A DNA stretch of 64,000 bases from an uncultured delta proteobacterium (GCA_963807225.1 CAWEAD010000005.1:544456-608455); one strand, 5' to 3'; counted from the first letter of the stretch, positions 2,579-23,912 are shown. Notes: generated by a model from the letters alone, not told the origin. Translations and numbers: made by a program.

Positions 2579-2647
2579 GACGCCTCTGATAATTGGTCCA
2601 AAAGATCCGCTATGGCTACGGTTTCACTCTTTTTAATGGTTGACCAT

Positions 2648-2686
2648 AAAAAAAGCAAGCTTCCCTAACTGGGGGGAAGCTTGCTT
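2648..2686 (-). terminator. Intrinsic terminator of the dsrMKJOP operon
   Basis: 13-bp perfect stem (aagcaagcttccc / gggaagcttgctt) followed by a 7-U tract on the minus strand, just after the dsrP stop. Confidence 0.85.
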
Positions 2687-2723
2687 AGAAAAGATCTAAA
2701 GATCAGGACAACCTGAGATCGGT

Positions 2724-3893: not shown

Positions 3894-3904
3894 GATATTT
3901 CACC

Positions 3905-4708
3905 TCAGATGATATAGAAAATCGACGGATGGGTACCAAGCGCCGGTTTCCGCTGGATGGTAAACTTCTCCTTGAGGACCTGGCTGACCTCGGAATTCGG
4001 ATCGTTCAGGTCGCCAAAGAACATGGCGCCACTGGGTCGAGCCTTCTCGACACAGGCTGGTTGCATACCTTCGGCCAAGCGCTCATTGCACAAGGTGCAT
4101 TTTTCTACCACGCCGCGCATCCGGGTAGGAAATTCAGGGTTCTCCTTTTTGATAAAAGGCCGTGGGTCACGCCAGTTGAAGCTCCTGGCGCCGTAAGGAC
4201 AAGCGGCCATGCAAAAGCGGCAACCGATGCAGCGATGGAAGTCCATCATGACAATGCCGTCGCGGTTCTTGAAGGTTGCCTTGGTCGGGCAGGCCCGGAC
4301 GCAAGGCGGGTTGTCGCAGTGGTTGCAGAGAGTCAATACCGGTATGTTCTCCAATTCCTCATTGCGCTTATACTGACTGTGCTCGGGAAAGGCATGTTCG
4401 AAGTTCTCGGTCCAGATCCACTTGACCGCATCCTTCTTGTCGTCCCCAAAATCAGGGACGTTGTGAATTGAATGGCAGGCATCTATACAAAGCTGAGTCA
4501 GCCCCTGATCCTCCGCGAATTTCCGGGTATCGATCACGAAGCCATAGCGCTTGGCACCACTCACCACCTCCGTTCCCTTTTCGGCGGCCTCACCTGTGCT
4601 GGCCTGAACCTCACCCTTGAGCAGAGAATTAAAGGCGGTAGGGGCACCAATGCCGGCAATGGCGGAGAGGCCGGCTATCTTGAGAAATTTTCTTCTGCCG
4701 TTATCCAT
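3905..4708 (-). CDS. dsrO: DsrO, periplasmic Fe-S (NrfC-like) subunit
   Basis: Tat signal (RRKFLK); CNHCDNPPCVRACP, CIGCRFCMAACP and EKCTLC motifs. Confidence 0.93.
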   Translation of the reverse strand: MDNGRRKFLKIAGLSAIAGIGAPTAFNSLLKGEVQASTGEAAEKGTEVVSGAKRYGFVIDTRKFAEDQGLTQLCIDACHSIHNVPDFGDDKKDAVKWIWTENFEHAFPEHSQYKRNEELENIPVLTLCNHCDNPPCVRACPTKATFKNRDGIVMMDFHRCIGCRFCMAACPYGARSFNWRDPRPFIKKENPEFPTRMRGVVEKCTLCNERLAEGMQPACVEKARPSGAMFFGDLNDPNSEVSQVLKEKFTIQRKPALGTHPSIFYII

Positions 4709-5097
4709 TAGTTGGCCTCCTTAGGCTGAAGATGGCAATCCCAGCAGTAAGGTTTTACAGCTGCGTAGGTGTGGCACTCGTCGCAGAATTTCTTCTTGCT
4801 GGCGTGGCACTTCATGCAACCTTTCTGCAAGCTCCTGATATATTCGGTGCCGTCGGAGGTCTGCCCGTGACGGGTACCTCCCATTCGGACGATGTCGTCA
4901 CGCCACTCGTTGAGCAGCACCATGTGGGACTTTCGCATTTCGGCAGTGGGCAGAACGCACTGCTTGGCGATGGTCGGTTTTTCCGGCACTGGTAACTTGC
5001 CGCCCCCACCAAATCCGTACCAGATCGGGAATGTCACCAGACCAACAAACACAATCAAACCGGGTATGATTTTTCCTTTGTCATACATTGGCATCAC
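4708..5097 (-). CDS. dsrJ: DsrJ, triheme cytochrome c
   Basis: Three CxxCH motifs (CMKCH, CDECH, CWDCH), an N-terminal TM anchor, and position between dsrK and dsrO. Confidence 0.93.
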   Translation of the reverse strand: MMPMYDKGKIIPGLIVFVGLVTFPIWYGFGGGGKLPVPEKPTIAKQCVLPTAEMRKSHMVLLNEWRDDIVRMGGTRHGQTSDGTEYIRSLQKGCMKCHASKKKFCDECHTYAAVKPYCWDCHLQPKEAN

Positions 5098-6737
5098 CCT
5101 TCCATTCCTTCAAGGGGTTCAAACCGGAGCCCGGTTTCCCTTTCTTTTTCACCCTCCATAACCAGGGCGTTGCCGACCAGCTCGGAAACACCGCAGACCT
5201 CGACATCAGGATTCCAGTACTGCATCAGAGACAGCAGCGTCGCCCGGTCGATGGCGCAGACGCAGGAGAGCATGTTGACACCGTATCTGTCATGCACGTG
5301 TTTAACGGCGTTGGCTCTGGGTAGCCCGGCCCGCATGCGCAGATCCATGATTTCGCCGGTGTTGAGGCCGGTGCCGCTACCGCAGCAGAATGTCTGCTCG
5401 CGAATGGTGTTCTCCGGCATCTCGTAGAAGTTATTTATTACATTTTTGAGGACATACCTGGGTTCTTCCAGAAGTCCCATGGCCCGGGCCGGGTTACAGG
5501 AATCGTGGAAGGTCACCTTGCGATGATTGTTCCGGGAAGGATCGAGCTTCAGCTTTCCATGCTTGATCAGATCAGCGGTAAACTCACTGATATGGACCAT
5601 CTTGGTGGAGGCGGCATTCTCGAAAACTGTGCCGGTGATCGGCGACTTGGGCACCTCCAGGAAGTCGGCCGGGCCGTTCATGGTATCCATGTACTGATGG
5701 ATGACCCGCCACATGTGGCCGCATTCGCCACCCAGGATCCACTTTACTCCCAAGCGCTTGGCCTCGGCGTACATCTTGGCGTTCAGTTTCTTCATCAGCT
5801 CATTGTTGGTGAAGAGACCGAAGTTACCGCCTTCCGAGGCATAAGTCGACCAGGTATAGTCCAGGCCAAGATGCTCGAAGAGCAAGAGATAACCCATGGC
5901 CGTGTATATGCCGGGCTCGGCGAAGACATCGGCCGAAGGAGTGATGAAGAGGATCTCGGCCCCCTTGCGGTTAAAAGTTGGCTCGATGCGAATCCCGGTG
6001 ATCTCCTCGATATCATCACAGAGGTAACCGATATTGTCCTTGAAGGTGTGGGGCTGTAACCCCATATGGTTGCCGGTCCGGTTGGAGTTGGAAGCCGGTT
6101 CCAGAATCCAGTTGGTGTTGACCCCTACCAGATGCAACAGTTCCCGGGCCATCATGGTAATCTCGGCGGTATCGATGCCATAGGGGCAGAAAACCGAACA
6201 GCGCCGACACTCGGTGCACTGGTAGAAGTACATGAACCATTCCTTCAATACCTCGAAGGTCATCTCCCGTCCGCCGGCCAGCTTGCCGAGAATCTTGCCG
6301 GCTTTGGTAAACTCGTTACGGTAAATCGAGCGTAACAGCTCGGCCCGCAACACCGGCATGTTCTTGGGATCGCCGGTACCCAGGAAGAAGTGACATTTGT
6401 CGGCACAGGCACCACACCTGACACAGCAGTCCATGAAGATTTTGAAGGAACGGAATTTGTCCAGCCGCTCCTTGATTCCCTGGATGATTATTTCCTTCCA
6501 GTTTTCCGGCAGCTTCCAATCTTCATCCTCGGGTTTCCACAACCGTGATTCGCCGAACTTGCCGGGCAGGTTTTTGTCAAGGTAGGCGGCCATTTCCGGT
6601 TTTCCGGGGTAACAATAGTTGCCCGGCTTGAAGACCGCCGGCACGTCCATCCACTCCTTGGTCGGGACGGCGCCCGTCATCATCGACGGGTCCTTCGCCA
6701 CGCTGACGCTCATTTGCTCAACTTTAGTATCTGCCAT
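5094..6737 (-). CDS. dsrK: DsrK, HdrD-like Fe-S/CCG catalytic subunit
   Basis: CVRCGACADKC, CTECRRCSVFCP, ECGH, FHDSC, FCCGSG and CAIDRA motifs. Confidence 0.95.
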   Translation of the reverse strand: MADTKVEQMSVSVAKDPSMMTGAVPTKEWMDVPAVFKPGNYCYPGKPEMAAYLDKNLPGKFGESRLWKPEDEDWKLPENWKEIIIQGIKERLDKFRSFKIFMDCCVRCGACADKCHFFLGTGDPKNMPVLRAELLRSIYRNEFTKAGKILGKLAGGREMTFEVLKEWFMYFYQCTECRRCSVFCPYGIDTAEITMMARELLHLVGVNTNWILEPASNSNRTGNHMGLQPHTFKDNIGYLCDDIEEITGIRIEPTFNRKGAEILFITPSADVFAEPGIYTAMGYLLLFEHLGLDYTWSTYASEGGNFGLFTNNELMKKLNAKMYAEAKRLGVKWILGGECGHMWRVIHQYMDTMNGPADFLEVPKSPITGTVFENAASTKMVHISEFTADLIKHGKLKLDPSRNNHRKVTFHDSCNPARAMGLLEEPRYVLKNVINNFYEMPENTIREQTFCCGSGTGLNTGEIMDLRMRAGLPRANAVKHVHDRYGVNMLSCVCAIDRATLLSLMQYWNPDVEVCGVSELVGNALVMEGEKERETGLRFEPLEGMEG

Positions 6738-6771
6738 TTTCGCGATCCCTTATAGTTAGCTGTTTTCAGGC

Positions 6772-7812
6772 TTATTCAGACTCAGCCGGAACCTCTTCTG
6801 TTGCCTTCGGCTCCAATTCCTTTTCCACCGGGATTCCCGCATCAACCATGAACTCCCGGAAATCATCCTCATAGGAGGCATAGGAATGCGGTTTAATCGA
6901 CGGATCGTTCCACGGGTTGATGTGGCGTACCATCCGGCTGTTATTGGCCATGTTCCGGGTGGGGCTAAGGAAGACACCACCCATATGCATCAGCTTACTG
7001 AAGGGAAAATACGCCATCAGAGTGGTGACCAGAAAAAAGTGCACGAAAAAGAGGTCGCCGATATTCTCAAGGGGAGCACCGGTCTGAAAGGTCACCAGCC
7101 CGTGGACCAGGGTTTTTATGTTAATCACATCGACCCGAACAAAATACCGCATGGTCACGCCGGTCAAGCCGATTGCCAGAATCAGGAAGAGCGGAAAGTA
7201 ATCGGCCGGCAAAGAGATATAGCGGATTGCCGGCAAGACCACTCGGCGCAGAAAAAGAAAGGTTACGGCGGTGAGAAACAACAGATCTGTAATATAGAGG
7301 GGTGGCGCCCCTACCTGCAGGAAGCCGTCGCCGAACTCCAAGACATGTATAAACCCGGGAATCGGGTCGGTAAACAGACGCATATGTCGCAGGACGATGA
7401 CCAGGAATGAATAGTGAAACATCAGACCAAACAGCCAGAGATACTTGCTGCTCAGGTAGGAAAGTTTAGGACCTTCATCAATCTTCGCCTGGGTATTGCG
7501 GAACAGGGAGCGGAACAGAAAAACCTCCAGAAACATCCTCCCCAAAACCCCGGCAGTAGTCGAAGGGCAATCAAGCTTGTTCTGCTTGATCCAGGGCAGA
7601 GAACTTTCCTGGCCGCAGGTGGTCGGGATCCGAAAGGGCACCGGCGACTTCGCCCAGTTCACGATCTTCTTAATGAAGAAGACAATGAATACGGCAAAAG
7701 CCAGCCAAGGCAATACTACCCCGAACAGCGTCCGCCCCCCGGGCACCTGCACGCCTAGGAAAGCGACCAGCATCAGCGCTAGAACAATTAATAATGAATT
7801 CAGGACTCTCAT
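6772..7812 (-). CDS. dsrM: DsrM, NarI-like cytochrome b subunit
   Basis: PFRIPTTCGQ, FHYSFLVIVLRH and YFPFSKLMHMGGVF motifs; multi-TM. Confidence 0.95.
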   Translation of the reverse strand: MRVLNSLLIVLALMLVAFLGVQVPGGRTLFGVVLPWLAFAVFIVFFIKKIVNWAKSPVPFRIPTTCGQESSLPWIKQNKLDCPSTTAGVLGRMFLEVFLFRSLFRNTQAKIDEGPKLSYLSSKYLWLFGLMFHYSFLVIVLRHMRLFTDPIPGFIHVLEFGDGFLQVGAPPLYITDLLFLTAVTFLFLRRVVLPAIRYISLPADYFPLFLILAIGLTGVTMRYFVRVDVINIKTLVHGLVTFQTGAPLENIGDLFFVHFFLVTTLMAYFPFSKLMHMGGVFLSPTRNMANNSRMVRHINPWNDPSIKPHSYASYEDDFREFMVDAGIPVEKELEPKATEEVPAESE

Positions 7813-7818
7813 TTACTG

Positions 7819-8391
7819 TTACCTCGCGTCTTGTTGACTGTGGTTAAGGTTGCCATCGCTCTCCGCCTGTTTATTATTAATTTCCTCCCGCAACATCGCG
7901 GACGGACATCTTGCCTTATCGATAACCTGGTGACGACCGCTCTCCACCTCCCGAATCCGTACTTGATAGAGGCGCTCTCGGCTGGCCATATACAGATCGA
8001 AACCGGCCAATGCCAAGCGGTCAATTCTGCCTACCAATTCCGGCCATTCCTGCTCAATTTCTGCCGACCATTCCTGGTGGCATTCCTGTCGGATGATCTC
8101 TTTTAGCCCAAAAATGAAGGCCAGGGCAGCAGAAGGTGCCAATTCCACCTGCACCGCCCGCAGTTTCATGAGGTGCTCGAGGGCCGCCTCCACCCCGGTC
8201 GGTTCCGGGCTGCGGATATCCCTGTATAAAAGGCGCAACCCTTCGGAGAAACTGGACCCGAGCGGGTTGGCGAAGGGATCTTTTCCCTGCAGAAATCGCA
8301 AGGCTTCCGGCTTAAACTCGCTGAGAATCAGGGCGAGCCATTTTTTGTGAATAGACGGCTCTTTCTCCGCCAGAAGCTGCAGAATGCGCAT
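7819..8391 (-). CDS. RsbRD N-terminal-domain-like protein leading the dsrMKJOP operon
   Basis: DPFANPLG...LMKLRAVQ..APSAALAFIFGLKEIIR pattern; stop lies 6 nt before the dsrM start. Confidence 0.7.
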   Translation of the reverse strand: MRILQLLAEKEPSIHKKWLALILSEFKPEALRFLQGKDPFANPLGSSFSEGLRLLYRDIRSPEPTGVEAALEHLMKLRAVQVELAPSAALAFIFGLKEIIRQECHQEWSAEIEQEWPELVGRIDRLALAGFDLYMASRERLYQVRIREVESGRHQVIDKARCPSAMLREEINNKQAESDGNLNHSQQDAR

Positions 8392-8554
8392 ATATCAGAT
8401 CTAAACCAGCAGTGGGAAATGATTTGCGAACCGCTCCTAAATATGAATGGCGATTCAGTGGATGACCAAAATCACTAGCATGTTTGTAATTTATTTTCAA
8501 GAATAAAAAGGAGGCGTGGAATGAGCGGGCCGACGATCAGAACAACCGGCCTGA

Positions 8555-10801
8555 CTACGAATCCGGCAATCCGGGAAGGTTGCCGCCTAGTCCGCAGCGA
8601 TCCAGCAATCTTTGCCGCAGGGCGGAATGCCTGGTCTGGACCCGATTGTTGGCAATGGCCAGAGCGACCGCCCGGCGGCTGCCGACCACTACCACCAGCC
8701 GCCGTCCTCTGGTCAGGCCGGTATAGAGCAGATTCCGTTGCAGCATGGCGGAGTGGCTGGTATGGAGGGGCATAATCACGCAGGGAAACTCCGACCCTTG
8801 TGACTTGTGGACGGTGATGGCATAGGCCAACTGCAATTCACGGCAATCGGCGGACTCGTAAGTCACCTGATGCCCTTCGAAGTCGACCAGGAACAGATCG
8901 TCTTCGCCGCCTATCCGAGCCACGAATCCGATATCGCCGTTGAAAACCTCTTTGTCGTAGTTGTTGCGGAGCTGCATGACTTTGTCACCGGGGAAAAAGC
9001 CGTTGACCGGCTGCATCCGGGAGGACGTGGCACTGCTGAGCAGTTCCTGCAGCCGCAGGTTGAGATTTTCCATGCCGATCAGACCTTTGCGCATCGGAGT
9101 CAGTACCTGAATGTCGTGGCGGGGGTCAAAGCCATACTTGCGACTCAGGCGGCCCCCGCAGAGACTGAGGATTTCCGCCTCGATCTCCCGGTCGGTTTCC
9201 CGGGGGATATAGTAAAAATCCTTATCTTTCTGATAGTCAGGCAACAATTCAAAGGGTTCTCCACGGTTGACCCTGGCCGCGTTAAGGCTGATCAGACTCC
9301 CGGATCCCTGTCGGAAGATTCGGGAAAGCCTGGCCACCGGCACGATCTTCGCTCCGATCAGGTCCTTTAAGACGTTGCCCGGCCCCACCGGGGGCAGCTG
9401 GTCGGCATCGCCAACCAGTAACAAGGCACTTCCAGGCGACAAAGCCCGGACTAGGGAATTGGCCAGATAGACGTCCAGCATGGAAACTTCGTCGATCACT
9501 ACCAGATCGGCTTCCAGAAAATTTTGGTCGTTCCGCCGGAAGCCGTGTGCGACCGGATCAAACTCCAGGAGTCGATGAATGGTTCTGGCTTCACGACCAG
9601 TTGCCTCACTAAGCCGCTTGGCGGCCCGTCCGGTGGGGGCGGCCAGGCTGATATTTACCCCGCGCTTCTCCAGGAGCAGGATCAAGGCTTTGAGAATAGT
9701 ACTCTTGCCGGTCCCCGGACCGCCGGTGATCACCGCCAGACGGCTGCCTAAGACGGTCTGCAGGGCTTCCTGTTGCTCTTCCGCCAGTTGCAGACCGAGT
9801 TGAACCTGCAGGTCCGGCATTTCCTGCCCGACCAGAACCTCACCCCAGGGGGGCGCCCCCTCCTGTAGCCGTAAAAAGCCTGCGGCAGTCCCGGTTTCGG
9901 CGTAATAGAGCGGAGCCAGATAGATTTTGTCCCAGGAAAGCACCACCTTTTCGTCCGCCACCAGCTGGTTCAGCTCAGCTTCCAAAAGAGCCGGTGGCAT
10001 TCCCAGCAGTCCGGAACTATGACGAATCAGCTCGGTTTGCTCCAGATAGCAATGACCCTGGCCGGCTGCTTCGCCCAGGACAAACAATAACCCGGCCCGA
10101 GCCCGACGAGGATCCATGGTCGGCATTCCCAGGGAGACGGCGATGCGGTCGGCAATTTTAAAACCGATTCCCCAGATGTCTTCGGCCAGCCGGTAAGGGT
10201 TCTCACGCACAATGCGCAAGGCCTCCGGCCCATAAGTACGATAGATTTTAACGGCCTGGGCTGCCGAGATGTCGTGGCCCTGAAGAAAAACCATGATCTG
10301 GTGCAGATCCCGGTGCTCCCGCCAGGCTTGGGCTAGTCGCTCCACCCTTTTGCGGCCCAAACCGGGAACCTCCCGCAGTCTCTCCGGCTCGCCTTCTAGT
10401 ATATCCAAGGTATCAAGTCCGAAGTGGGCGACGATCCGCGCCGCGTAGCTAGGCCCGATGCCTTTAATCAGCCCGGAGCCCAGATATTTTTCGATGCCGT
10501 TGAGGGTATCTGGGCGCACTACCCGATAGGTGTCGACCGCGAACTGTCGGCCATGTCGGGGATCTTGGCGCCACTGCCCGCGAACGGCGACCAAAGATCC
10601 GACCGCGACTCCGGCCAGGGCGCCTACCAAAGTGATCCCTTCCGCAGTACTCTCGTCAGTTTGTAGACGGGCCACAGTGAAGCCGGTCTCAGTGCTCTGG
10701 AAGGTGATCTTATCCAGCACTCCGACCAGTTCGCGGGCGGTAGCCGATTCGTTCGTGTCCCGGCCATTGCCGGTTTTTCGGGAATTTTGGGGGGAGACCA
10801 T
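8555..10801 (-). CDS. recD2: ATP-dependent RecD2-like DNA helicase (SF1B)
   Basis: HHH region (GIGPSYA), Walker A GGPGTGKS, DEVSM, GDADQLPPVGPG, AYAITVHKSQGSEF. Confidence 0.93.
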   Translation of the reverse strand: MVSPQNSRKTGNGRDTNESATARELVGVLDKITFQSTETGFTVARLQTDESTAEGITLVGALAGVAVGSLVAVRGQWRQDPRHGRQFAVDTYRVVRPDTLNGIEKYLGSGLIKGIGPSYAARIVAHFGLDTLDILEGEPERLREVPGLGRKRVERLAQAWREHRDLHQIMVFLQGHDISAAQAVKIYRTYGPEALRIVRENPYRLAEDIWGIGFKIADRIAVSLGMPTMDPRRARAGLLFVLGEAAGQGHCYLEQTELIRHSSGLLGMPPALLEAELNQLVADEKVVLSWDKIYLAPLYYAETGTAAGFLRLQEGAPPWGEVLVGQEMPDLQVQLGLQLAEEQQEALQTVLGSRLAVITGGPGTGKSTILKALILLLEKRGVNISLAAPTGRAAKRLSEATGREARTIHRLLEFDPVAHGFRRNDQNFLEADLVVIDEVSMLDVYLANSLVRALSPGSALLLVGDADQLPPVGPGNVLKDLIGAKIVPVARLSRIFRQGSGSLISLNAARVNRGEPFELLPDYQKDKDFYYIPRETDREIEAEILSLCGGRLSRKYGFDPRHDIQVLTPMRKGLIGMENLNLRLQELLSSATSSRMQPVNGFFPGDKVMQLRNNYDKEVFNGDIGFVARIGGEDDLFLVDFEGHQVTYESADCRELQLAYAITVHKSQGSEFPCVIMPLHTSHSAMLQRNLLYTGLTRGRRLVVVVGSRRAVALAIANNRVQTRHSALRQRLLDRCGLGGNLPGLPDS

Positions 10802-10870
10802 CCGCTGATTATAAAAAGATCAAACGGAAAACCACACTAAAAAGATAGGAGAACAGAGGGAACAAAGTAT

Positions 10871-11059
10871 TCAACAACCGTGCTTGATCAGAAAATCCCG
10901 GACCATCTCATCCATTATTTCCAACTGGCTACGCCCGGTTTCGTTGATGATGAGCCAGGTGCAACGCTGATAAGCCCGATAAAGATCCGCCGGGATCTGT
11001 ATGGTTAAGTAATGCCGTTCAGCCTCAGTCTTTTCGGTCTCTCCCTTTCTATCTGACAT
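10871..11059 (-). CDS. Small protein, putative ribbon-helix-helix DNA-binding
   Basis: Beta-strand LTIQIP followed by two predicted helices separated by G-R-S; fills the gap between hisA and recD2 on the same strand. Confidence 0.55.
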   Translation of the reverse strand: MSDRKGETEKTEAERHYLTIQIPADLYRAYQRCTWLIINETGRSQLEIMDEMVRDFLIKHGC

Positions 11060-11111
11060 GCGATCTAGCCAATCGTCGAACCATTATAAGGTAAAGAGAC
11101 GAGACTTCTTT

Positions 11112-11876
11112 TCATGCCCCGGCACAAAAGCGCACCGCTTCTCGATAGGTGATGGTGGTCCCGCCGAAGATATCGAGGGCGCTACCGACCGTGACATCCA
11201 GCCGGTTACGGCCCAGTTCCTTGACCAGCTTCAGGTCGTTGAGATCTCGAACCCCGCCGGCATAAGTTGTCGGTAGTGGCGTCCAGTCGGCCAGATCGGC
11301 GACCAGATCTTCGGCCACCCCGGCGCACTTGCCTTCAACATCAGCGGCGTGGATCAGAAATTCGCTACAGAAATCGGCGAAGTAGGCCAGGGACTCGCGG
11401 TTGATCTCCACTCCGGTGAACTTCTGCCAGCGATCAGTAACCACGAAGTAGCGTCCTTCCCGCTTCCGGCAGCTGAGATCGATAACCAGCCGTTCACGAC
11501 CCACCAACTGCCGCAACTCAAGCAAGCGATCTTCCAGAACCTGTCCGTCCCGAAAGACATAGGAGGTGACTATTACCGCCGCCGCCCCAAGATCAAGCCA
11601 TTTGCCGGCATTGGCCCCGGTTATGCCGCCGCCCAGCTGCAACCCACCTGGCCAGGCGGCCAAAGCCTCGGCCGCCGCCGCTTCATTACCGAGCCCCAAC
11701 ATGATCACATGCCCACCGGTGAGTCCGTCGCGCCGGTACATCTCGGCGTAATGTCCCGGAGGCAGCTCGGAGGCGAAGTTGGTGCGCAAAGCCGCCGCGT
11801 CGCCATCGGTCAGGGTGGAGCCGACAATCTGCTTGACCCGCCCCTCGTGCAGATCGATACATGGTCTGAATTTCAT
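11112..11876 (-). CDS. hisA: ProFAR isomerase, His6 (eukaryote-like) type
   Basis: MKFRPCIDLHEGRVKQIVG, GGHVIMLG, LQLGGGI, EFLIHAADVEG, TVGSALDIFGG. Confidence 0.9.
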   Translation of the reverse strand: MKFRPCIDLHEGRVKQIVGSTLTDGDAAALRTNFASELPPGHYAEMYRRDGLTGGHVIMLGLGNEAAAAEALAAWPGGLQLGGGITGANAGKWLDLGAAAVIVTSYVFRDGQVLEDRLLELRQLVGRERLVIDLSCRKREGRYFVVTDRWQKFTGVEINRESLAYFADFCSEFLIHAADVEGKCAGVAEDLVADLADWTPLPTTYAGGVRDLNDLKLVKELGRNRLDVTVGSALDIFGGTTITYREAVRFCAGA

Positions 11877-11884
11877 GGCACCTC

Positions 11885-11922
11885 AAAAAAAATGGCGGAA
11901 AGACCCCGTGCCTTTCCGCCAT
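11885..11922 (-). terminator. Terminator-like hairpin directly upstream of the hisA RBS
   Basis: Perfect 11-bp stem (atggcggaaag / ctttccgccat) plus U-tract, followed immediately by GAGGT-GCC-ATG. Confidence 0.7.
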
Positions 11923-15795: not shown

Positions 15796-16023
15796 CTTCA
15801 CCACCCGTGACTGTAGGTTCGTCTGCTTAACCTGAGGCAATTACGAATTTAATATATACCCCACACCTATAAAGCACAACCGGCCAGGGAAAAAACCGCG
15901 GATGTTATTTAACCTGATCGCCAGATCTTGACAACACTATTCACCCGTTATAAAAGAACAATCAGTAAGAGTTATCACCACTATTCGGGGTAGTTTCCGG
16001 TCAATTTTCAGAAGGAGATCACG

Positions 16024-16173
16024 ATGGCTGAATTTAAATGCAAGAAGTGCGGCGCCGCGGTGGAATGCCGCTGTAAACCGAAAAAATGCCAGGCTTGCGG
16101 CGAGGCCGATGCGATGATCAAGCAGGAGGCCGAAAAAGCTTCCGGTTGCGGCTGCCGTTGCGGTAAGAAATAA
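16024..16173 (+). CDS. 49-aa Cys-rich rubredoxin-like small protein (RCKP motif); not in the ORF track
   Basis: RBS AAGGAG 7 nt upstream. Translates as MAEFKCKKCGAAVECRCKPKKCQACGEADAMIKQEAEKASGCGCRCGKK and has its own terminator. Confidence 0.85.
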   Translation: MAEFKCKKCGAAVECRCKPKKCQACGEADAMIKQEAEKASGCGCRCGKK

Positions 16174-16194
16174 ACTGAGAGCCGGACTTGCTCA

Positions 16195-16229
16195 AACCCC
16201 GGAGGCCAAACCTCCGGGGTTATTTTTTT
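16195..16229 (+). terminator. Intrinsic terminator after the small Cys-rich ORF
   Basis: 11-bp stem (aaccccggagg / cctccggggtt) followed by a T7 tract. Confidence 0.85.
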
Positions 16230-16369
16230 GTCCGGTGGTTGACTGACGTCCAACCGGGAACGGAATTCCTTTACAATTTCAGTCGGAAAATGCGATAAAT
16301 ATTTATTTGGCCGGTCGTCGCCGACCTGCCGCCAGTAAGTCACCGGTTGATTTACCCCGGGGAGGCTGA

Positions 16370-18400
16370 ATGCGCAACATTCTCACCACCTGCGTCTATT
16401 GTGGCTGTGGCTGCGGGCTTTACCTCAAAGAAGTCCGCGGCCGGGTCACCGGCTCCTATCCCAGCCGCAACCATCCGGTTTCCCGGGGCAACCTCTGCGT
16501 CAAGGGCTGGCATCTGCATGAGTTCATCCACTCGCCCGACCGCCTCACCACACCCCTGATCCGCAAAAAAGGTCGTCTTACTCAAGCCTCCTGGGATGAA
16601 GCCCTTGGGCTGACTGCTCGGGAGCTGGGTCGGCTACGCGACGAACACGGCGGCGACAGCTTGGCGGTGATGGCCTCGGCCAAGTGCACCAACGAAGAAA
16701 ATTACCTGCTGCAAAAGTTCACCCGGGCGGTTCTCCGGACCAACAATATCGACCACTGCGCCCGCCTCTGACACGCCCCGACCGTGGCAGGTCTTGCCAC
16801 CACCTTCGGCAGCGGCGCCATGACCAACTCGATCAACGAAATCGAACGGGCCGAAGTAATCCTGGTTTCCGGTTCCAACACCACCGAGGCCCACCCTCAG
16901 ATTGCCCGCCGTATGCTGGACGCCGTGGACCGCGGCGCCAAACTGATCGTCATCGACCCGCGCCGCACTCCACTGGCAACCATGGCCCACCTGCACCTGG
17001 CCCTGCGCCCCGGCACCGACATACCTCTCCTGAACGGGATGATGAAGGTGATCATCGACGAAAACCTGGCTGACGATCTCTTCATCGAGATGCGCACCGA
17101 AAACTATCACGCCCTGCGCGACCTGCTCAACCGACTCGATTTGGAGGAGGTGGCGGCGATCACCGGCGTCAGTCTGAGCCTGATCCGCCAGGCCGCTCAG
17201 CTATATGCCAGAGCCCAGAAGGCGGTGATCTGCTACTGCCTGGGCATCACCCAGCACGTCTGCGGCACCGACAACGTCCAGACCATCGCCAACCTGGCCA
17301 TGCTCACCGGCCACGTGGAAAAGGAAAATACCGGGGTCGATCCCCTGCGCGGCCAGAACAACGTCCAGGGCGCCTGCGACATGGGGGCACTGCCCAACGT
17401 CTTTCCCAGTTACCAGCAGGTGGACAACCCCGAATATCAGAAAAAGTTCGAACGGGCTTGGGGGGTCAAGCTTCCTGCCAAACCGGGGATACGGCTGGTT
17501 GGCATGACCCACGGGGAACCTGGCGTGACCTTGCGAGGCATGTATATCATGGGCGAAAATCCCATGCTCAGCGACCCGGTCCTGGAGCGGGTGCAAGAGA
17601 GCTTAAAGAATCTGGAGTTCCTGGCGGTAGCCGATCTCTTCCTGACCGAAACCGCGCAGCTCGCCGACGTGGTCTTCCCGGCCGCCACCTTCGCCGAGAA
17701 AACCGGCACCTTCACCAACTCCGAGCGGCGGGTGCAGATGGTCCGCCAGGCCATTCCGGTCCAGCCGGACTGTCGAACCGACGGTGCGATCATCATGGAA
17801 CTCTCTCGGCGCCTCGGTTACGAAATGGACTACGATTCCCCGGCCGAGATCATGGAGGAAATCGCCCTCCTTGCCCCCATCTATGGCGGGATGCATCACG
17901 ACCGTCTGGAGGCGGGCTGGGGTATGCAGTGGCCCTGCTGGGACCGGCAGCATCCCGGCACCCCATTTCTGCACAAATATTACTTCACCCGGGGCAAGGG
18001 GTGCTTTATCCCGGCCGGGCACATCTCTCCCGCCGAAGTCCCGGACGATGAGTATCCCCTGCTATTGATGACCGGGCGTATCTATCACCAGTACCATACC
18101 GGGACCATGACCCGACGCAGCCACACCCTGCACCGGGAGAATCCCGAAGCACTACTCCAGCTCAATCCGGTCGACGCGGACCGGTTCCAGGTCGGCAACG
18201 GCGAGACCGTTCACCTCGCCTCCCGCCGCGGAACGATCGAGGTCAAGGCCGAAATCTCCGAAGCGGTGTCAGCCGGTACGGTTTACACCACTTTCCACTT
18301 CCCGGAGGCGCCGATCAACCTGCTGACCATCGGCGCCAAGGACGAAAAGGCCGGCTGCCCTGAGTACAAGGTCTGTGCGGTCCGCATCGACAAGGTTTGA
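16370..18400 (+). CDS. fdhF: Selenocysteine-containing cytoplasmic formate dehydrogenase alpha subunit (Mo/W-bisPGD), 676 aa, Sec134
   Basis: RBS GGAGG; CVYCGCGC...C [4Fe-4S] motif; IDHCARL-(TGA 16769-16771)-HAPTV in frame with the downstream 538-aa ORF; RGQNNVQGACDMG; no Tat signal. Confidence 0.93.
16772..16800 (+). promoter_or_regulatory. Bacterial SECIS element
   Basis: Stem GTGGCA / TGCCAC with loop GGTCT starts 12 nt after the UGA and closely resembles the E. coli fdhF SECIS. Confidence 0.85.
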
Positions 18401-18402
18401 CC

Positions 18403-19443
18403 ATGGCCGACCAGTACCTGCTCAAAAAAGACCACCTGAAGCCATTTATCCGGAAGCTGGCCAAGGATTATCGCATTGTCGCCCCCCTGCTCAACGAACA
18501 CGGGGACACCATGTTCAATCCGGTCGCGGATCTGGACCGGGAAGAGGTCGACCTGGACAACCAGCCTCAAAACTCGATCAAGCAGTTTTTCTTCCCGCAG
18601 ACCGAGGCGATCTATGAATACTCATGTGCGGAGCCGGGCCGCTATGAATTCCACGAGGCTAAGCTGGGGACCGATCCGACCATCTTTTTCGGGGTCAGGC
18701 CCTGCGACCTGTCGGCCCTGCTCTATCTGGACGTCATTTTCCTGCGGGACGCCAAGGACCCCTTTTACCTGCGGCGGCGGGAGGTCTCGATCCTGATCGG
18801 CCTGAACTGCAACCGGCCCTTCGAGAATTGCTTCTGCAACGCCACCAGAAACGGCCCGCACCAGGAGTTCGGTTTCGATCTGCAGCTCACCGACCTGGGC
18901 GACCGCTTCCTGGTAGAAGTCGGCCGTGCCCGGGGGGAGGAACTTGTCAACCGCTGGCACCAGTTCTTCGTCCCAGCCACAGCCAGCGACAGCCAGGCCC
19001 AATACCAGGCCCTGTTGGAGGCCCGCGGTTCCTTTCCCCGCCAGATCCATGTCGATCAGGCCATCAAACGTCTGCGGGAGGGCGAAGCCGATCCGCAGAT
19101 CTGGCAGTTTCTCTCGCAACGCTGTCAGGACTGCGGCGGCTGCGCCTACGTCTGCCCCACCTGCACCTGCTTCACCATCTCGGACCATCCCGCTTCGGCC
19201 ACAGCGGGGACCAGGCTCCGCTCCTGGGATGCCTGCACCTTCTCCGGCTTTACCCGGATGGCCGGCGGCCATAACCCGGTGCGGCGTGATTCTGCCGCCA
19301 TCCGGCAACGATTCCTGCACAAACTTCTCTACGATGTAGAAAAACATGGCCGTCCCAGTTGCGTGGGCTGCGGCCGCTGCGTCGGAATCTGCTTCGGCGG
19401 CACCGACATCGTCCGCTTCATCAACCTCGTCGGTCAGGAATAA
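18403..19443 (+). CDS. AsrA/HydB/FlxB-like 4Fe-4S dicluster protein
   Basis: GVRPCD, FCNAT, CQDCGGCAYVCPTCTCF, RSWDAC and CVGCGRCVGIC motifs. Starts 2 nt after the fdh stop. Confidence 0.85.
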   Translation: MADQYLLKKDHLKPFIRKLAKDYRIVAPLLNEHGDTMFNPVADLDREEVDLDNQPQNSIKQFFFPQTEAIYEYSCAEPGRYEFHEAKLGTDPTIFFGVRPCDLSALLYLDVIFLRDAKDPFYLRRREVSILIGLNCNRPFENCFCNATRNGPHQEFGFDLQLTDLGDRFLVEVGRARGEELVNRWHQFFVPATASDSQAQYQALLEARGSFPRQIHVDQAIKRLREGEADPQIWQFLSQRCQDCGGCAYVCPTCTCFTISDHPASATAGTRLRSWDACTFSGFTRMAGGHNPVRRDSAAIRQRFLHKLLYDVEKHGRPSCVGCGRCVGICFGGTDIVRFINLVGQE

Positions 19444-19447
19444 GACC

Positions 19448-20296
19448 ATGCCCTTGAGCCTCAACCATCCCTACCTGCCTAAACCGGCCAAGATCCTGGA
19501 TGTCGTCGAGGAGAACCCACAGATCAAGACCTTCGTCCTGGCCCTAGCCGAGCCGGAGGCCAACCAGGCCTTCACTTACGTTCCCGGTCAATTTCTGATG
19601 CTGTCGGTGCCCCACTGCGGCGAGGCACCGATCTCCATTGCCTCCTCCCCGGCCGAACCGGGAACCATCCATCTCGCCATCCGCCGGGCCGGCAAGCTGA
19701 CCGAAGCCATGCACCGGCTTAATCCCGGGGACATGGTCGGGGTGCGCGGACCTTACGGCCGGCCCTTTCCCATGGCTGAACTGGCCGGCCGGGAACTCAT
19801 ATTCGTGGCCGGCGGCATCGGACTAGCCCCCCTGCGCTCGGTGATCAAGACCTGCCTGGCCGACGACCGCTACCGGCCCAAAAAGATCACCCTGCTCTAC
19901 GGCAGCCGCTGCCCCGACGAAATCGCCTTCCTCCGGGATCTGGACGAGTGGCGGAACTGTGAGGGTTTCGTCGGCCATCTTACCGTAGATCGCTGCACGG
20001 AAGGTTGGGAAGGGGCGGTAGGGTTGGTCACCACCCTGCTCGACCGGGTCGAATGGGAACCGGATCGAAGCACCGCCCTGGTTTGCGGCCCATCCCTGAT
20101 GATCAGGGCGGTTCTGGCCGAGCTGAGCCACCGCGGGTTGCCCGAGGAGCGGATCATCACCACTTTGGAACGCCATATGAAATGCGGGGTCGGGGTCTGC
20201 CGCCACTGTCACTTGGATTCGAAACTGGTCTGCAAGGACGGACCGGTTTTCACCCTGGCCGAACTCAGGGAACTCTCGGTCATGGAGCTGACCTGA
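19448..20296 (+). CDS. AsrB/HydG/FlxA-like FAD/NAD(P)-binding oxidoreductase with [2Fe-2S]
   Basis: PGQFLML, EAPISIAS, VRGPYG, AGGIGLAPLRS, VCGP and ERHMKCGVGVCRHC..VCKDGPVF motifs. Confidence 0.88.
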   Translation: MPLSLNHPYLPKPAKILDVVEENPQIKTFVLALAEPEANQAFTYVPGQFLMLSVPHCGEAPISIASSPAEPGTIHLAIRRAGKLTEAMHRLNPGDMVGVRGPYGRPFPMAELAGRELIFVAGGIGLAPLRSVIKTCLADDRYRPKKITLLYGSRCPDEIAFLRDLDEWRNCEGFVGHLTVDRCTEGWEGAVGLVTTLLDRVEWEPDRSTALVCGPSLMIRAVLAELSHRGLPEERIITTLERHMKCGVGVCRHCHLDSKLVCKDGPVFTLAELRELSVMELT

Positions 20297-22261
20297 ATGG
20301 AAAAAGCATGGCCGGACACCCGCCGCGTCACTTTCCTGCCCTCCGGGCTAACCATTGATATCGAGGTCGGTGAAACCCTGCTCAAGGCGGCCCAGAATGC
20401 CGGACTCCACATCAATGCCTCCTGCGGCGGCAGCGGGGTTTGCGGCAAGTGCCGGGTACTCCTGAAGACAGGTACGTTGGCGGGCGGCCTCACCGAGAAA
20501 CTTGGCGAACCGGACCGGGCCGCCGGCTGGCGCCAGGCCTGCACCGCGGTGATCGAAAACGATGTCACTGTGGAGATCCCGGCCGGCTCCGGCAAGATCG
20601 GCGGCGGACTCTCCACCGGGGTGGCGGAACGACACCGCAGCCGGCTGCGCAAATACGATATTGAAGAGCTTCGTCAGTCCGGGCTTCTGCAGCCACCGGT
20701 GGAAAAGCTCTTCCTGGAGCTGCCCCGCCCCTCGCCGGTGGACAATATGGCCGACGCCAAACGGGTGATCCAGGGTCTCCATAACCAGTACGACGAAAAA
20801 GCCATGGTCGTCAGCCTGTCGGTACTCCGCAAATTGCGTCGGGTCTTACGGGAAGACGACTTCCGGGTCACCGTCACCCTGGCCCGACCGGTCCATGCCG
20901 ACAAGGGCAAGAACTTCCTGGTCAACATCCAGGCCGGCAACTGGACCAAGCGCAGCTTCGGCCTGGTCTTCGACATCGGCACCACCACCATTTACGGCCA
21001 GCTGGTCGATCTTAACACCGGTAAGATCCTCGGTGGCGAAGGCGATTACAACGGCCAGATCAGCTACGGTGAAGACGTGATCAACCGAATCATCTACGCC
21101 GAGACTCCGGAGGGGCTGACCACCATGGCCCGGGTGGCGGCCGAAACCATGAACCACCTCATCGGCAAACTGCTGAGCACCGCCGGCATCGACCGGGATG
21201 AGATCACCTCGGTCACCATCGCCGGTAACACCACCATGACCCATCTCTTTCTGGGCTTGGAACCGCACTCGATCCGCCGAGCCCCCTACGTGCCGGTTTC
21301 CACCTTCTTCCCGCCCATGCGGGCCAGCGACCTGGGCCTCAACCTGCCCCAACACTGCGTGGCCCTGATCTTTCCGGCCATCTCCAGTTATGTGGGCGGC
21401 GATATCGTCGCCGGGGTCATGGGCGCCGGTCTGTACCGAACCGAGGCCCTGACCCTGTTCATCGACATCGGCACCAATGCCGAGATTGTCATCGGCAATC
21501 GGGAGTGGCTGGTCTGCGCCGCCTGCTCGGCCGGCCCTGCCTTCGAGGGCGGCGGCATCGCCCATGGGATGCGGGCGGCCGACGGAGCGATTAAGGACTT
21601 CAGCCTCAACCCGGAAACCCTGGAACCGATGAACATCACCATCGGCAACCGCCCACCCTTGGGTATTTGCGGCTCGGGGCTGCTGGTTATCGTTGCCACC
21701 TTGCTCTCCCACGGCATTATCGACCGGCGCGGCAAGTTCACTCGGCGCCGAACCTCTCCCCGCCTGCGGGAAGGTAGGAACGGCTGGGAGTACGTCCTGG
21801 CCTGGCAGGCCGAAAATGGGGCCGACTGCGATATCGCCATCAACGAGGTCGATATCGACAATTTGATCCGGGCCAAGGCGGCCATCTATGCTGGGATCAA
21901 AACGCTGGTCGAGGAAGTGGGGCTGAACATCAGTGACTTGGAACAAATCATCCTGGCTGGGGCCTTCGGCAGTTTCATCGATCTCGATGCCGCCATGGCC
22001 ATCGGTTTGCTGCCGGAAGTAGCGCCAGAGACGATTACCTATGTGGGCAACGGCTCGCTGATGGGCGGCAGATTGAGCGAATTGAGCAACCACATCCGCC
22101 GAGACGTGGTAGAGGTAGTCGGCCGGATGACCAGTTTTGAACTCTCCGAGGTGACCGGCTTCAAAGACCAGTACATCGCCTCGCTTTTCCTGCCCCACAC
22201 CGAACTGGAACTGTTCCCGGCCACGGCGGAAAGGCTGGGACTGAAAAAGATCGAAGCCTGA
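20297..22261 (+). CDS. ASKHA-domain reductive activator of corrinoid proteins (RACo-like; N-terminal 2Fe-2S ferredoxin)
   Basis: ASCGGSGVCGKC...RQAC; FDIGTTT; NGQISYGEDVINRI; FIDIGTNAE; ACSAGPAFEG; GICGSG; LAGAFG. ATG abuts the previous stop. Confidence 0.88.
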   Translation: MEKAWPDTRRVTFLPSGLTIDIEVGETLLKAAQNAGLHINASCGGSGVCGKCRVLLKTGTLAGGLTEKLGEPDRAAGWRQACTAVIENDVTVEIPAGSGKIGGGLSTGVAERHRSRLRKYDIEELRQSGLLQPPVEKLFLELPRPSPVDNMADAKRVIQGLHNQYDEKAMVVSLSVLRKLRRVLREDDFRVTVTLARPVHADKGKNFLVNIQAGNWTKRSFGLVFDIGTTTIYGQLVDLNTGKILGGEGDYNGQISYGEDVINRIIYAETPEGLTTMARVAAETMNHLIGKLLSTAGIDRDEITSVTIAGNTTMTHLFLGLEPHSIRRAPYVPVSTFFPPMRASDLGLNLPQHCVALIFPAISSYVGGDIVAGVMGAGLYRTEALTLFIDIGTNAEIVIGNREWLVCAACSAGPAFEGGGIAHGMRAADGAIKDFSLNPETLEPMNITIGNRPPLGICGSGLLVIVATLLSHGIIDRRGKFTRRRTSPRLREGRNGWEYVLAWQAENGADCDIAINEVDIDNLIRAKAAIYAGIKTLVEEVGLNISDLEQIILAGAFGSFIDLDAAMAIGLLPEVAPETITYVGNGSLMGGRLSELSNHIRRDVVEVVGRMTSFELSEVTGFKDQYIASLFLPHTELELFPATAERLGLKKIEA

Positions 22262-22475: not shown

Positions 22476-22556
22476 ATACTCAACTAGCAAAAGAATTTGA
22501 GGAAAACTGCAAGGTATTAACAGTCAAAAATCAACCAATTGTATCAGGAGGCTAAC

Positions 22557-23042
22557 ATGAAGAAATTATTGATCGTTACCGCACTAGTTGGCAGTTTGGG
22601 GCTGGTAGGCTATCAAGTTGCGTCGGCCCAGACGGATAGCCCTGGCGGTGGTTACGGCCCGGGTTACGGTTATTGCGGCAATTATGGCTACGGTGGTCAG
22701 GGTTACAGTGGCCAAGGCTACAGTGACGAAGACAATGCCAACATCGGCAAATTTCGTGATGAAACAGTCGATCTCCGCAAGGATCTGGCGGTCAAGCGCG
22801 CTGAATTAAGAGCCCTGGATCGACAGGACAACCCAGATGCCAAAAGGATAGCCGAGTTGACCGGAGAAATTTTCGATCTGCAAACCAAACTCGACAAGAT
22901 CGCCGAGAAATACAAGTTGAACAAGATCGGCCCCCGTTCCGGTTACGGCCCTGGCATGGGTTATGGACCAGGCATGGGCTACGGCCCCGGCATGATGGGA
23001 TACGGCGGCAGGGGTTATGGCCGCCACATGATGGACTGGTAA
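22557..23042 (+). CDS. Periplasmic ZraP/Spy/CpxP-family protein with Gly/Tyr/Met-rich termini
   Basis: RBS GGAGG; signal peptide ending VASA; core FRDETVDLRKDLAVKRAELRAL...IAELTGEIFDL. Confidence 0.75.
   Translation: MKKLLIVTALVGSLGLVGYQVASAQTDSPGGGYGPGYGYCGNYGYGGQGYSGQGYSDEDNANIGKFRDETVDLRKDLAVKRAELRALDRQDNPDAKRIAELTGEIFDLQTKLDKIAEKYKLNKIGPRSGYGPGMGYGPGMGYGPGMMGYGGRGYGRHMMDW
22941..22994 (+). repeat. Three 18-nt tandem repeats encoding GYGPGM
   Basis: ggttacggccctggcatg / ggttatggaccaggcatg / ggctacggccccggcatg. Confidence 0.9.
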
Positions 23043-23084
23043 CAGTCCAACTCTTTCTTCCTCCCTCTCCCTCTCACCTGAACG

Positions 23085-23111
23085 GGCCCCGTCGACACAT
23101 TCGGCGGGGCC
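23085..23111 (+). terminator. Hairpin after the ZraP-like gene
   Basis: ggccccgtcga-cacat-tcggcggggcc with only a weak U-tract. Confidence 0.45.
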
Positions 23112-23184
23112 TGGCTGTTTCATCGAACCGTTGCGGGAAGAAAGGGAAGGCTATCGGCGATTATGATTCCCATGGAGGTAATTT

Positions 23185-23480: not shown

Positions 23481-23912
23481 TTACTCCGGCAGGCCGGCCG
23501 AACCCTCCATTGAGACGGCCATGGCCCTAACCGGACAGACCGCGACGCAGAGTCCGCAGCCGGTACATTTATCCAGGTCGAAAATCACTCCCATGTCGGG
23601 GCGATGGATGGAAAGCGCCCCGGTGGGGCAGATTCCGGTGCAGGCCCCGCACTGGAAGCACTTGTCATCGTCGCGGCGAATACCGGCCGCCACCCGTTCC
23701 ACCTGCACTCCGAAGTCCTTGAGGTACTGAATGCCCTGGTCGACCTTGGTCTTGTGACCCATCAACTCCAGGACCATCACCCCTTCCTGTTGCAGATTGA
23801 TATCGGCTCTGAGAATATTGAACTCGATCCCGTATTTCTTGACCAGCGTGCAGATGATCGGCTGATCGATGGTTTCCTTGGGGAACTTCAGGACATAAAT
23901 CCGGTTTGACAT
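23481..23912 (-). CDS. NIL-domain / 2x[4Fe-4S] ferredoxin protein
   Basis: QPIICTLVKKYGIEFNILRA (NIL domain); CFQCGACTGICP and CTGCGLCVAVCP. Confidence 0.88.
   Translation of the reverse strand: MSNRIYVLKFPKETIDQPIICTLVKKYGIEFNILRADINLQQEGVMVLELMGHKTKVDQGIQYLKDFGVQVERVAAGIRRDDDKCFQCGACTGICPTGALSIHRPDMGVIFDLDKCTGCGLCVAVCPVRAMAVSMEGSAGLPE

Follow-up and report, generated by a model that had tools for sequence, protein, structure and literature searches.

A selenocysteine formate dehydrogenase, a sulfhydrogenase-like NAD(P)H module and a RACo-type corrinoid activator encoded in a predicted four-gene operon of an uncultured delta proteobacterium

Corrinoid proteins that act in the Wood-Ljungdahl pathway and in methyl transfer are held in the active Co(I) state by RACo-type activators, a class for which both structures and in-vitro chemistry are known and which includes RACo of C. 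hydrogenoformans (3ZYY; with CoFeSP, 4C1N) and AcsV of acetogens. To our knowledge, the natural electron donor of RACo has not been established. HydB/HydG of P. furiosus sulfhydrogenase I (9NEZ) and AsrA/AsrB of the Salmonella type have in common a pair of subunits, one with Fe-S clusters and the other with FAD, NAD(P)H and [2Fe-2S] sites, which joins a catalytic subunit to the nicotinamide pool, and FlxA and FlxB/C of the Desulfovibrio FlxABCD-HdrABC system are members, in the broad sense, of these HydG-like and HydB-like families. In the NAD(P)H-linked formate dehydrogenases (FDHs) of the Wood-Ljungdahl pathway, such as the Moorella NADPH-FDH and enzymes of the FdsABG/NuoEFG type, a soluble FdhA with selenocysteine (Sec) and Mo/W is likewise combined with a flavin module. 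Here, we describe a locus that brings members of these families together in a stretch of 64,000 nucleotides from an uncultured delta proteobacterium (GCA_963807225.1 CAWEAD010000005.1:544456-608455; hereafter, the window), in which the genes for a Sec-containing FdhA, a HydB/HydG-like pair (together, the trio) and a RACo (with the trio, the quartet) are arranged as follows:

16370-18400, + strand: fdhA, predicted Sec formate dehydrogenase catalytic subunit, 676 aa (TIGR01591 and molybdopterin domains)
16769-16771, + strand: in-frame TGA at fdhA codon 134, read as Sec134 and followed by His135 in the motif CARLUHAPTV
16784-16800, + strand: SECIS-like hairpin with the loop GGUCU, 3' of the Sec TGA
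18403-19443, + strand: HydB/AsrA-like Fe-S electron-transfer subunit, 346 aa (Fer4_22)
19448-20296, + strand: HydG/AsrB-like FAD/NAD(P)H subunit with a C-terminal [2Fe-2S] site, 282 aa (FAD_binding_6, NAD_binding_1, DHODB_Fe-S_bind)
20297-22261, + strand: RACo paralogue B (RACo-B), predicted reductive activator of corrinoid proteins, 654 aa (four Pfam domains)

When the open reading frames (ORFs) were reproduced by reading the sequence, the four genes were found tightly packed on the + strand between positions 16370 and 22261. The TGA stop of fdhA is followed by CC and the ATG of hydB at 18403, the TAA stop of hydB by GACC and the ATG of hydG at 19448, and the TGA stop of hydG abuts the ATG of RACo-B at 20297; the gaps of 2, 4 and 0 nt given in a first-pass annotation of this DNA were thus matched exactly. 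A terminator scan revealed no strong + strand site (stem of at least 8 pairs) inside the operon, and the number of sites in the operon region was no different from that in shuffled sequence. Co-transcription of the quartet is predicted on the basis of the 0-4 nt gaps and the lack of a strong internal + strand terminator. Neither a twin-arginine nor a hydrophobic export signal was seen at any of the four N-termini, read by eye, in agreement with the first annotation, and the gene identities proposed there (a Sec-FDH, an AsrA/AsrB-like pair and a RACo) were borne out by domain and structure matches.

FdhA scored 803.2 bits against TIGR01591, above the cut-off of 666.25, with residues 6-673 aligned to positions 1-672 of the model, and it carries the domains Molybdop_Fe4S4, Molybdopterin and Molydop_binding, expected to hold Mo/W-bisPGD and one N-terminal [4Fe-4S] cluster. 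Its nearest solved structures, the F420-dependent FDH 9T1S_L, FdhF of HDCR (7QV7_S) and E. coli FdhH (1AA6), are all cytoplasmic FDHs, and the protein is predicted to be the catalytic subunit of a cytoplasmic formate dehydrogenase or CO2 reductase. A Sec ligand followed by His is found at the active site, part of the machinery to decode Sec is present in the form of a tRNA-Sec (contig C5:1241197-1241294), and gene calls in relatives break at the same fdhA TGA. The folding energy of the hairpin at 16784-16800 was no better than that of shuffled sequences (z = -0.21), and it was not counted as support.

The HydB-like protein reached 174 bits against the sulfhydrogenase beta model NF040833 (cut-off 750) and 153 bits against AsrA (TIGR02910; cut-off 323), and the HydG-like protein 194 bits against NF040835 (cut-off 650) and 187 bits against AsrB (TIGR02911; cut-off 289). 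Because all scores lie under the equivalog cut-offs, both proteins are homologues, and not equivalogs, of sulfhydrogenase beta and gamma, and form a distinct subfamily. The closest solved relatives are the beta (9NEZ_B, E = 5e-46) and gamma (9NEZ_C, E = 2.5e-56) subunits of P. furiosus sulfhydrogenase I, with AsrA and AsrB ranking behind them, and an alignment of 9 orthologues of the HydB-like protein showed invariant Cys columns. Unlike in the sulfhydrogenase and Asr systems, the catalytic partner here is a Sec-FdhA; at the locus there are no genes for NiFe hydrogenase alpha/delta subunits or for an AsrC-like siroheme subunit, and the neighbours of HydB/HydG are FdhA and RACo. In contrast to Flx-Hdr, the partner is an FDH and no Hdr or MvhD genes occur in the operon or its flanks, an HdrL-like gene being present in a separate acs cluster; the label Flx-like, used at first pass, is therefore right for the general fold family but not for the gene neighbourhood. 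With respect to the other Wood-Ljungdahl FDHs, with which a role in the reduction of CO2 to formate is presumed to be common, the difference lies in the electron module, which belongs to the HydBG (AsrAB/PyrK-like) type and not to the NuoEF or GltD one. Another pair of HydB/HydG-like genes, with 31% and 40% identity to the operon proteins, was detected at contig C8:193714-195580.

RACo-B matched four Pfam domains, all above cut-off (Fer2, RACo_linker PF17650, Raco_middle PF17651 and RACo_C_ter PF14574), and has an N-terminal [2Fe-2S] ferredoxin domain, a linker, a middle domain and an ASKHA ATPase domain, the same four-domain architecture as C. hydrogenoformans RACo and acetogen AcsV. The match to 3ZYY (E = 5e-155, residues 10-642, ~50% identity) extends over the full length, with the DIGTTT and DIGTN stretches aligned, so that the assignment to RACo made at first pass stands. 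Against the NCBIfam AcsV model NF040756, with a cut-off of 800 bits, RACo-B reached 631 bits, its paralogues A and C 654 and 456 bits, and an acs-linked orthologue (locus L098) 684 bits. Because even this acs-cluster-linked RACo remained below 800, the cut-off fails to tell RACo paralogues apart in this phylum. As judged from its sequence, the identification of RACo-B as a full-length [2Fe-2S] corrinoid activator is solid, and a Co(II) to Co(I) activity is predicted. The 120 RACo homologues listed, the top matches, are 575-690 aa long with the standard architecture, the single exception being a partial record without Fer2, and no fusion of HydG or FDH to RACo was found among them. Unlike in the AcsV setting, RACo-B is the last gene of an FDH operon, lies outside the acs cluster and is one of three paralogues.

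The reading that we favour, and consider fairly probable, is that an NAD(P)H-linked CO2 reductase and a CoFeSP-type activator are encoded in one operon as separable modules, both for Wood-Ljungdahl C1 metabolism and accessory to the main acs cluster. The first module, FdhA(Sec)-HydB-HydG, would be a soluble cytoplasmic FDH or CO2 reductase built on the plan of the Pyrococcus sulfhydrogenase, with FdhA in place of the NiFe subunits; a cytoplasmic NAD(P)H-linked enzyme of this kind, as first proposed, remains the best reading of the trio. By homology, electrons are expected to pass from NAD(P)H to the FAD and [2Fe-2S] of HydG, to the Fe-S clusters of HydB and to the [4Fe-4S] and Mo/W-Sec site of FdhA, or in reverse. 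In the second module, RACo-B would take one electron onto its own [2Fe-2S] domain and, at the expense of ATP, reduce the cobalt of a corrinoid protein from Co(II) to Co(I). Orthology to solved RACo and a sister clade located inside acs clusters make CoFeSP, whose genes (acsCD) lie at another place in the genome, the likeliest target. Both modules would have been joined early in the order Desulfobulbales and retained in many lineages, probably because Wood-Ljungdahl C1 metabolism makes use of both and requires them jointly. In this organism, the quartet would represent a second, accessory set, the main one being the acs cluster with a fused FdhAB-HdrL plus RACo paralogue A.

The genome of this sulfur-cycling bacterium (3.74 Mb, 13 contigs, with the window on contig C5) carries this main Wood-Ljungdahl cluster on contig C6, where fhs, folD, CODH, acsD, ACS, acsC, a fused Sec-FdhAB gene and an HdrL-like gene are found. 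The fused protein, encoded next to acsC, combines Fer2_4, GltD-like and molybdopterin domains, and the FDH of the quartet is a second cytoplasmic FDH of the genome. The corrinoid targets that the first-pass annotation presupposed could be located, because contig C6 carries acsCD; further candidates are B12-binding proteins and a gene of the HgcA type. In the 64-kb window there is no corrinoid protein gene above threshold, as first noted, and the companion statement that it lacks Hdr genes is in essence correct too; dsrMKJOP are present at 2724-7812, unlinked to the operon, with DsrK/M that we take to be Hdr-related. The acs cluster of Desulfurivibrio dismutans has the same layout as that on contig C6 (PMC12142623). 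Besides RACo-B, the genome search revealed two further RACo paralogues:

contig C5:860216-862129 (locus L020:8216-10129), - strand: RACo paralogue A (RACo-A), 637 aa, with Fer2
RACo paralogue C (RACo-C), 514 aa, without Fer2

None of the three adjoins acsCD, RACo-B being on contig C5 and acsCD on C6. Between RACo-A and acsE there are ~13.6 kb, with genes for a sigma-54 activator, cytochromes b and c and an FtsH-like protease.

In a RACo tree built under a site-heterogeneous model with 13 A orthologues included, the A, B and acs-linked clades were supported with values of 99, 100 and 96, and B was the sister of the acs-linked clade (support 97), with A outside both. The acs-linked clade contains 6 RACo genes located immediately upstream of acsD-CODH-ACS-acsC, in genomes with one full-length RACo and no A. 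Because its sister clade sits in acs clusters as the sole full-length RACo, B appears to descend from a lineage of CoFeSP activators. Both acsC and acsD were present in the 18 RACo-B genomes checked (18/18), and acsC in 82 of the 90 RACo-B genomes of the order. Both paralogues appear to be tied to the Wood-Ljungdahl pathway, A with the methyltransferase step and B with formate dehydrogenases. The idea that A is a divergent stray was rejected, this paralogue being the most widespread RACo of the order (121/151 genomes).

Other gene arrangements were observed around these RACo lineages. In 6 of 13 sampled loci (among L184-L197), A is followed on the same strand by a 251-aa unknown protein (some loci), acsE, a 200-aa unknown protein and DAHP synthase. 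Directly 5' of the acs-cluster RACo in L090 (~1220-3241), L093, L094 and L098-L100, there is a gene for a 673-aa flavoprotein with Oxidored_FMN (Old Yellow Enzyme, OYE) and Pyr_redox_2 domains, which brings the kinds of NAD(P)H-type module seen beside this RACo lineage to three. Tandem RACo genes were found beside an FAD-linked oxidase gene in L086 and L096 (~7944-11900), the second copy being highly divergent (branch lengths 0.6-1.1).

The conservation of trio and quartet was followed in relatives recorded as Desulfobulbales, Desulfurivibrionaceae and Desulfobulbaceae (names as on the deposited records), with 80 genome loci retrieved via RACo-B, 80 metagenome loci retrieved via HydB and 151 species-level genomes of the order, evenly sampled. 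FdhA and HydG flanked HydB in the metagenome loci wherever the contig allowed, and outside the order, where it was detected in three further families of the phylum, the trio was always complete and never had an adjacent RACo. FdhA-HydB-HydG is an autonomous module, a fixed unit, to which RACo is appended only within Desulfobulbales. RACo was located directly after hydG in 29 of the 55 informative metagenome loci, mostly at distances of -7 to +10 nt, and the full FdhA-HydB-HydG-RACo order was found in 11 of the RACo-B genome loci, plus 2 truncated ones. Among the 151 genomes, the trio-type HydB was detected in 70 (~46%), RACo-B in 90, RACo-A in 121 and acsC in 123. HydB and RACo-B were present together in 60 genomes and adjacent in 26 of them, from 12 of 17 families. 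Because the same order recurs in 26 of 151 genomes and in 29 metagenome contigs, the quartet arrangement is not due to chance.

The quartet is conserved in relatives, so that an unlinked RACo, which would have spoken against the first-pass annotation, was found only in part: in the other 34 of the 60 genomes with both modules, trio and RACo-B are at separate loci. Thirty of the 90 RACo-B genomes, including an isolate genome, are devoid of the trio, and 10 of the 70 trio genomes have no RACo-B; in a family relative (L026), RACo-B is found behind the same upstream genes with the trio absent. The remaining RACo-B orthologues among the 80 loci are in unrelated contexts, many of them far from any FDH. 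With the trio missing from a third of the RACo-B genomes and the two modules unlinked in most of the others, an obligate four-subunit complex is unlikely. The four proteins are better described as two separable modules, the trio being also found alone in the three outside families.

Linkage to RACo takes a basal, paraphyletic position on the FdhA tree and changes ~5 times, a pattern that points to an ancient linkage of trio and RACo with several later losses. In L168, a RACo C-terminal remnant (7940-8203) with 38% identity to residues 536-651 was observed right after an intact trio, and is likely the footprint of one such loss. The possibility that a trio without RACo is always beside other Wood-Ljungdahl genes was rejected, as glucoamylase, histidine kinase and pyruvate kinase genes were found downstream. 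In L116 (8225-9583), L127 and L128, a B12-binding radical SAM gene is present downstream of the RACo-less trio on the same strand.

In D. dismutans AMeS2, the trio (RS03135-RS03125; L072), whose proteins are 65%, 59% and 56% identical to those of the operon, was already discussed as an enzyme that may reduce CO2 at the expense of NAD(P)H, with a minor role (PMC12142623). The next gene, RS03120, unmentioned in that paper and annotated as 'ASKHA domain-containing protein', is a RACo-B orthologue, so the quartet is also present in this strain. No literature linking a RACo/DUF4445 protein to formate dehydrogenase was found; the component families are all known, and the FDH-RACo pairing is undescribed as far as found. 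The combination was not recognised as a described complex at first pass, and this holds for the pairing but not for the trio, for which the same hypothesis had been published. Relative intensity-based absolute quantification (riBAQ) values for two conditions, formate + nitrate and S8, were taken from Table S1 of PMC12142623:

FdhA: 1.2e-5 with formate + nitrate, 3.6e-5 with S8
HydB: 3.1e-5 with formate + nitrate, 4.5e-5 with S8
HydG: 8.1e-5 with formate + nitrate, 6.2e-5 with S8
RACo-B: 5.1e-5 with formate + nitrate, 8.0e-5 with S8
RACo-A: 2.3e-5 with formate + nitrate, 1.3e-5 with S8
RACo-C: 1.3e-5 with formate + nitrate, 6e-6 with S8
AcsC: 2.1e-3 with formate + nitrate, 2.5e-3 with S8
acs-linked FdhAB: 6e-4 with formate + nitrate, 6.9e-4 with S8

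All four quartet proteins are therefore made in D. dismutans, at a similar low abundance (riBAQ 1e-5 to 8e-5), and RACo-B is its most abundant RACo, at ~1/30 to 1/40 of CoFeSP (PMC12142623).

Several observations weigh against the reading of two accessory Wood-Ljungdahl modules. Present in 121 of the 151 genomes, against 123 for acsC, RACo-A follows the distribution of acsC more closely than B does, and in 6 of the 13 loci sampled acsE (product vs 1F6Y, E = 5e-43) is found 0.2-1.7 kb downstream of it, so A may be the housekeeping CoFeSP activator and B may have a more special role. The assignment of RACo-B to Wood-Ljungdahl corrinoid activation, made at first pass, is thus backed by its sister relationship to acs-linked RACo, but is weakened by the closer match of A to CoFeSP and acsE. 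Among acsC-positive genomes, B co-occurs with the trio far above expectation, with an odds ratio of 8.9 (cells 56, 8, 26 and 33) that ignores phylogeny. In other genomes, B follows an unrelated FDH of the NAD(P)H type, NuoE-NuoF-FdhA: a NuoG-type Sec-FdhA is directly upstream of RACo in three loci (L043, L037 and L044), preceded by NuoE/NuoF-like genes in L043. Both the co-occurrence and this second FDH type fit a functional tie more specific than co-regulation. Finally, ACS (C6:72087-74292; locus L022) is split over four frame segments and has four 1-bp insertions relative to a genome of the same genus (G079), in which ACS is intact, and the reading frame of acsE (C5:845731-846613) shifts once, at a G5 run; in the window, no broken gene was apparent from the ORF map. 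These frameshifts could be due to decay of the carbonyl branch into pseudogenes or to local assembly errors. If they are real, CoFeSP of this organism may be idle, and the presence of an intact FDH-RACo operon would be harder to explain by a function in the Wood-Ljungdahl pathway.

A more specific tie would exist if the trio were the physiological reductant of RACo-B, with electrons from formate or NAD(P)H passing via HydG/HydB to the RACo [2Fe-2S] domain in an ATP-driven unit for corrinoid repair, an explanation that we regard as possible, albeit rather unlikely. The stop of hydG and the start of RACo are 0 to a few nt apart in most linked loci, the linkage is kept across 12 families, and three NAD(P)H-type modules (HydBG-FDH, NuoE-NuoF-FdhA(Sec) and OYE + Pyr_redox_2) are found directly 5' of this RACo lineage. 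The association of B with the trio in acsC-positive genomes, expressed by the above odds ratio that takes no account of phylogeny, while A sits with acsE, points in the same direction, as does the abundance of the D. dismutans trio, which is 8-50x below that of the acs-linked FDH and matches RACo-B, a level that suits repair over a bulk CO2 reductase. On the other hand, the trio-free RACo-B genomes (30/90), the separate loci in 34 of 60 genomes and the trio without adjacent RACo outside the order all speak for independence, no HydG-RACo fusion was found among the 120 homologues listed, and the ferredoxin domain of RACo itself could take electrons from any low-potential donor. It is similarly doubtful that such a repair unit evolved in the order alongside a separate, acsE-linked housekeeping RACo-A.

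It is distinctly improbable that RACo-B serves a corrinoid protein other than CoFeSP (HgcA-like, small MtaC-like or of the split methionine-synthase type), with A serving CoFeSP and the linkage to FDH reflecting some other shared regulation. Such a division of labour would account for three RACo paralogues and several corrinoid proteins in one genome, for the tracking of acsC and acsE by A, and for the 41 acsC-positive genomes without B; 13 of 18 genomes with B encode an HgcA-like protein, and a small 'corrinoid protein' equals CoFeSP in abundance in D. dismutans (PMC12142623). However, the sister clade of B is in acs clusters, as the sole full-length RACo there, B never adjoins a gene for a B12-binding protein in the 80 loci, and the repeated association with FDH would be left unexplained.

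A role of RACo-B as an ATP-dependent reductive activator of the FDH itself, by which a Mo/W or Fe-S site that had become oxidised and inactive would be reduced again, would agree with its constant 3'-terminal position in FDH operons of two architectures and with the activation of non-corrinoid metalloenzymes by other ASKHA-type ATPases (2-hydroxyacyl-CoA dehydratase activators and the double-cubane cluster protein reductase), but is very improbable in view of the ~50% full-length identity to a solved CoFeSP activator with all domains kept, the many B genes far from any FDH and the lack of a precedent.

The operon is flanked by the following features:

16195-16221, + strand: terminator-like hairpin with a T-run, 11-bp stem with 8 G-C pairs, then ATTTTTTTGT
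22539-23042, + strand: possible fifth gene, 167 aa, with a weak Metal_resist/CpxP-like match, 277 nt 3' of RACo-B

The hairpin terminates the 49-aa gene that precedes the operon, and behind it begins the operon control region (16222-16369), ~150 nt of non-coding DNA that extend to fdhA. No Rfam family reached the gathering threshold anywhere in the window, and there is thus no sign of a riboswitch, for Moco or of another type, upstream of fdhA. The 49-aa gene (16024-16173, + strand), directly 5' of the operon, encodes a Cys-rich product (MAEFKCKKCG...CGCRCGKK) without a Pfam match, and is equipped with a good ribosome-binding site and a strong terminator of its own. A minus-strand ORF at 16008-16343, upstream of fdhA, is overlapped by this gene and its terminator and was rejected as probably spurious; a tblastn search with it produced matches at the same upstream spot in several related loci, and the stretch seems to be conserved.

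Downstream of RACo-B, the first strong + strand terminator is at 23083-23113, beyond the 167-aa gene, with strong terminators spanning 23032-23113. In none of the 80 related loci did RACo have a homologue of the 167-aa gene beside it, so that this gene is not conserved with the quartet, and its membership of the operon is uncertain. Convergent to RACo-B there is a gene (23481-23912, - strand) for a protein with a NIL domain and a 2x[4Fe-4S] ferredoxin, which stays near RACo-B in many related loci with the FDH trio present or absent. This proximity may be mere synteny, or the protein may be another candidate electron partner.

A RACo lineage fixed 3' of NAD(P)H-type FDH operons, of two unrelated architectures and in 12 families, with stop and start often overlapping, provides a concrete candidate for the electron donor of these activators, and D. 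dismutans AMeS2 is a cultured bearer of the quartet. The trio defines an uncharacterised type of FDH, made up of a Sec-FdhA and sulfhydrogenase-like beta/gamma subunits, in nearly half of the sampled species of the order. Even if the linkage were due to co-regulation only, the annotations 'ASKHA domain-containing protein' and 'molybdopterin oxidoreductase' would still be corrected. The existence of two distinct full-length RACo paralogues with different partners, acsE for one and FDH for the other, bears on the annotation of carbon fixation in sulfur disproportionators and their relatives.

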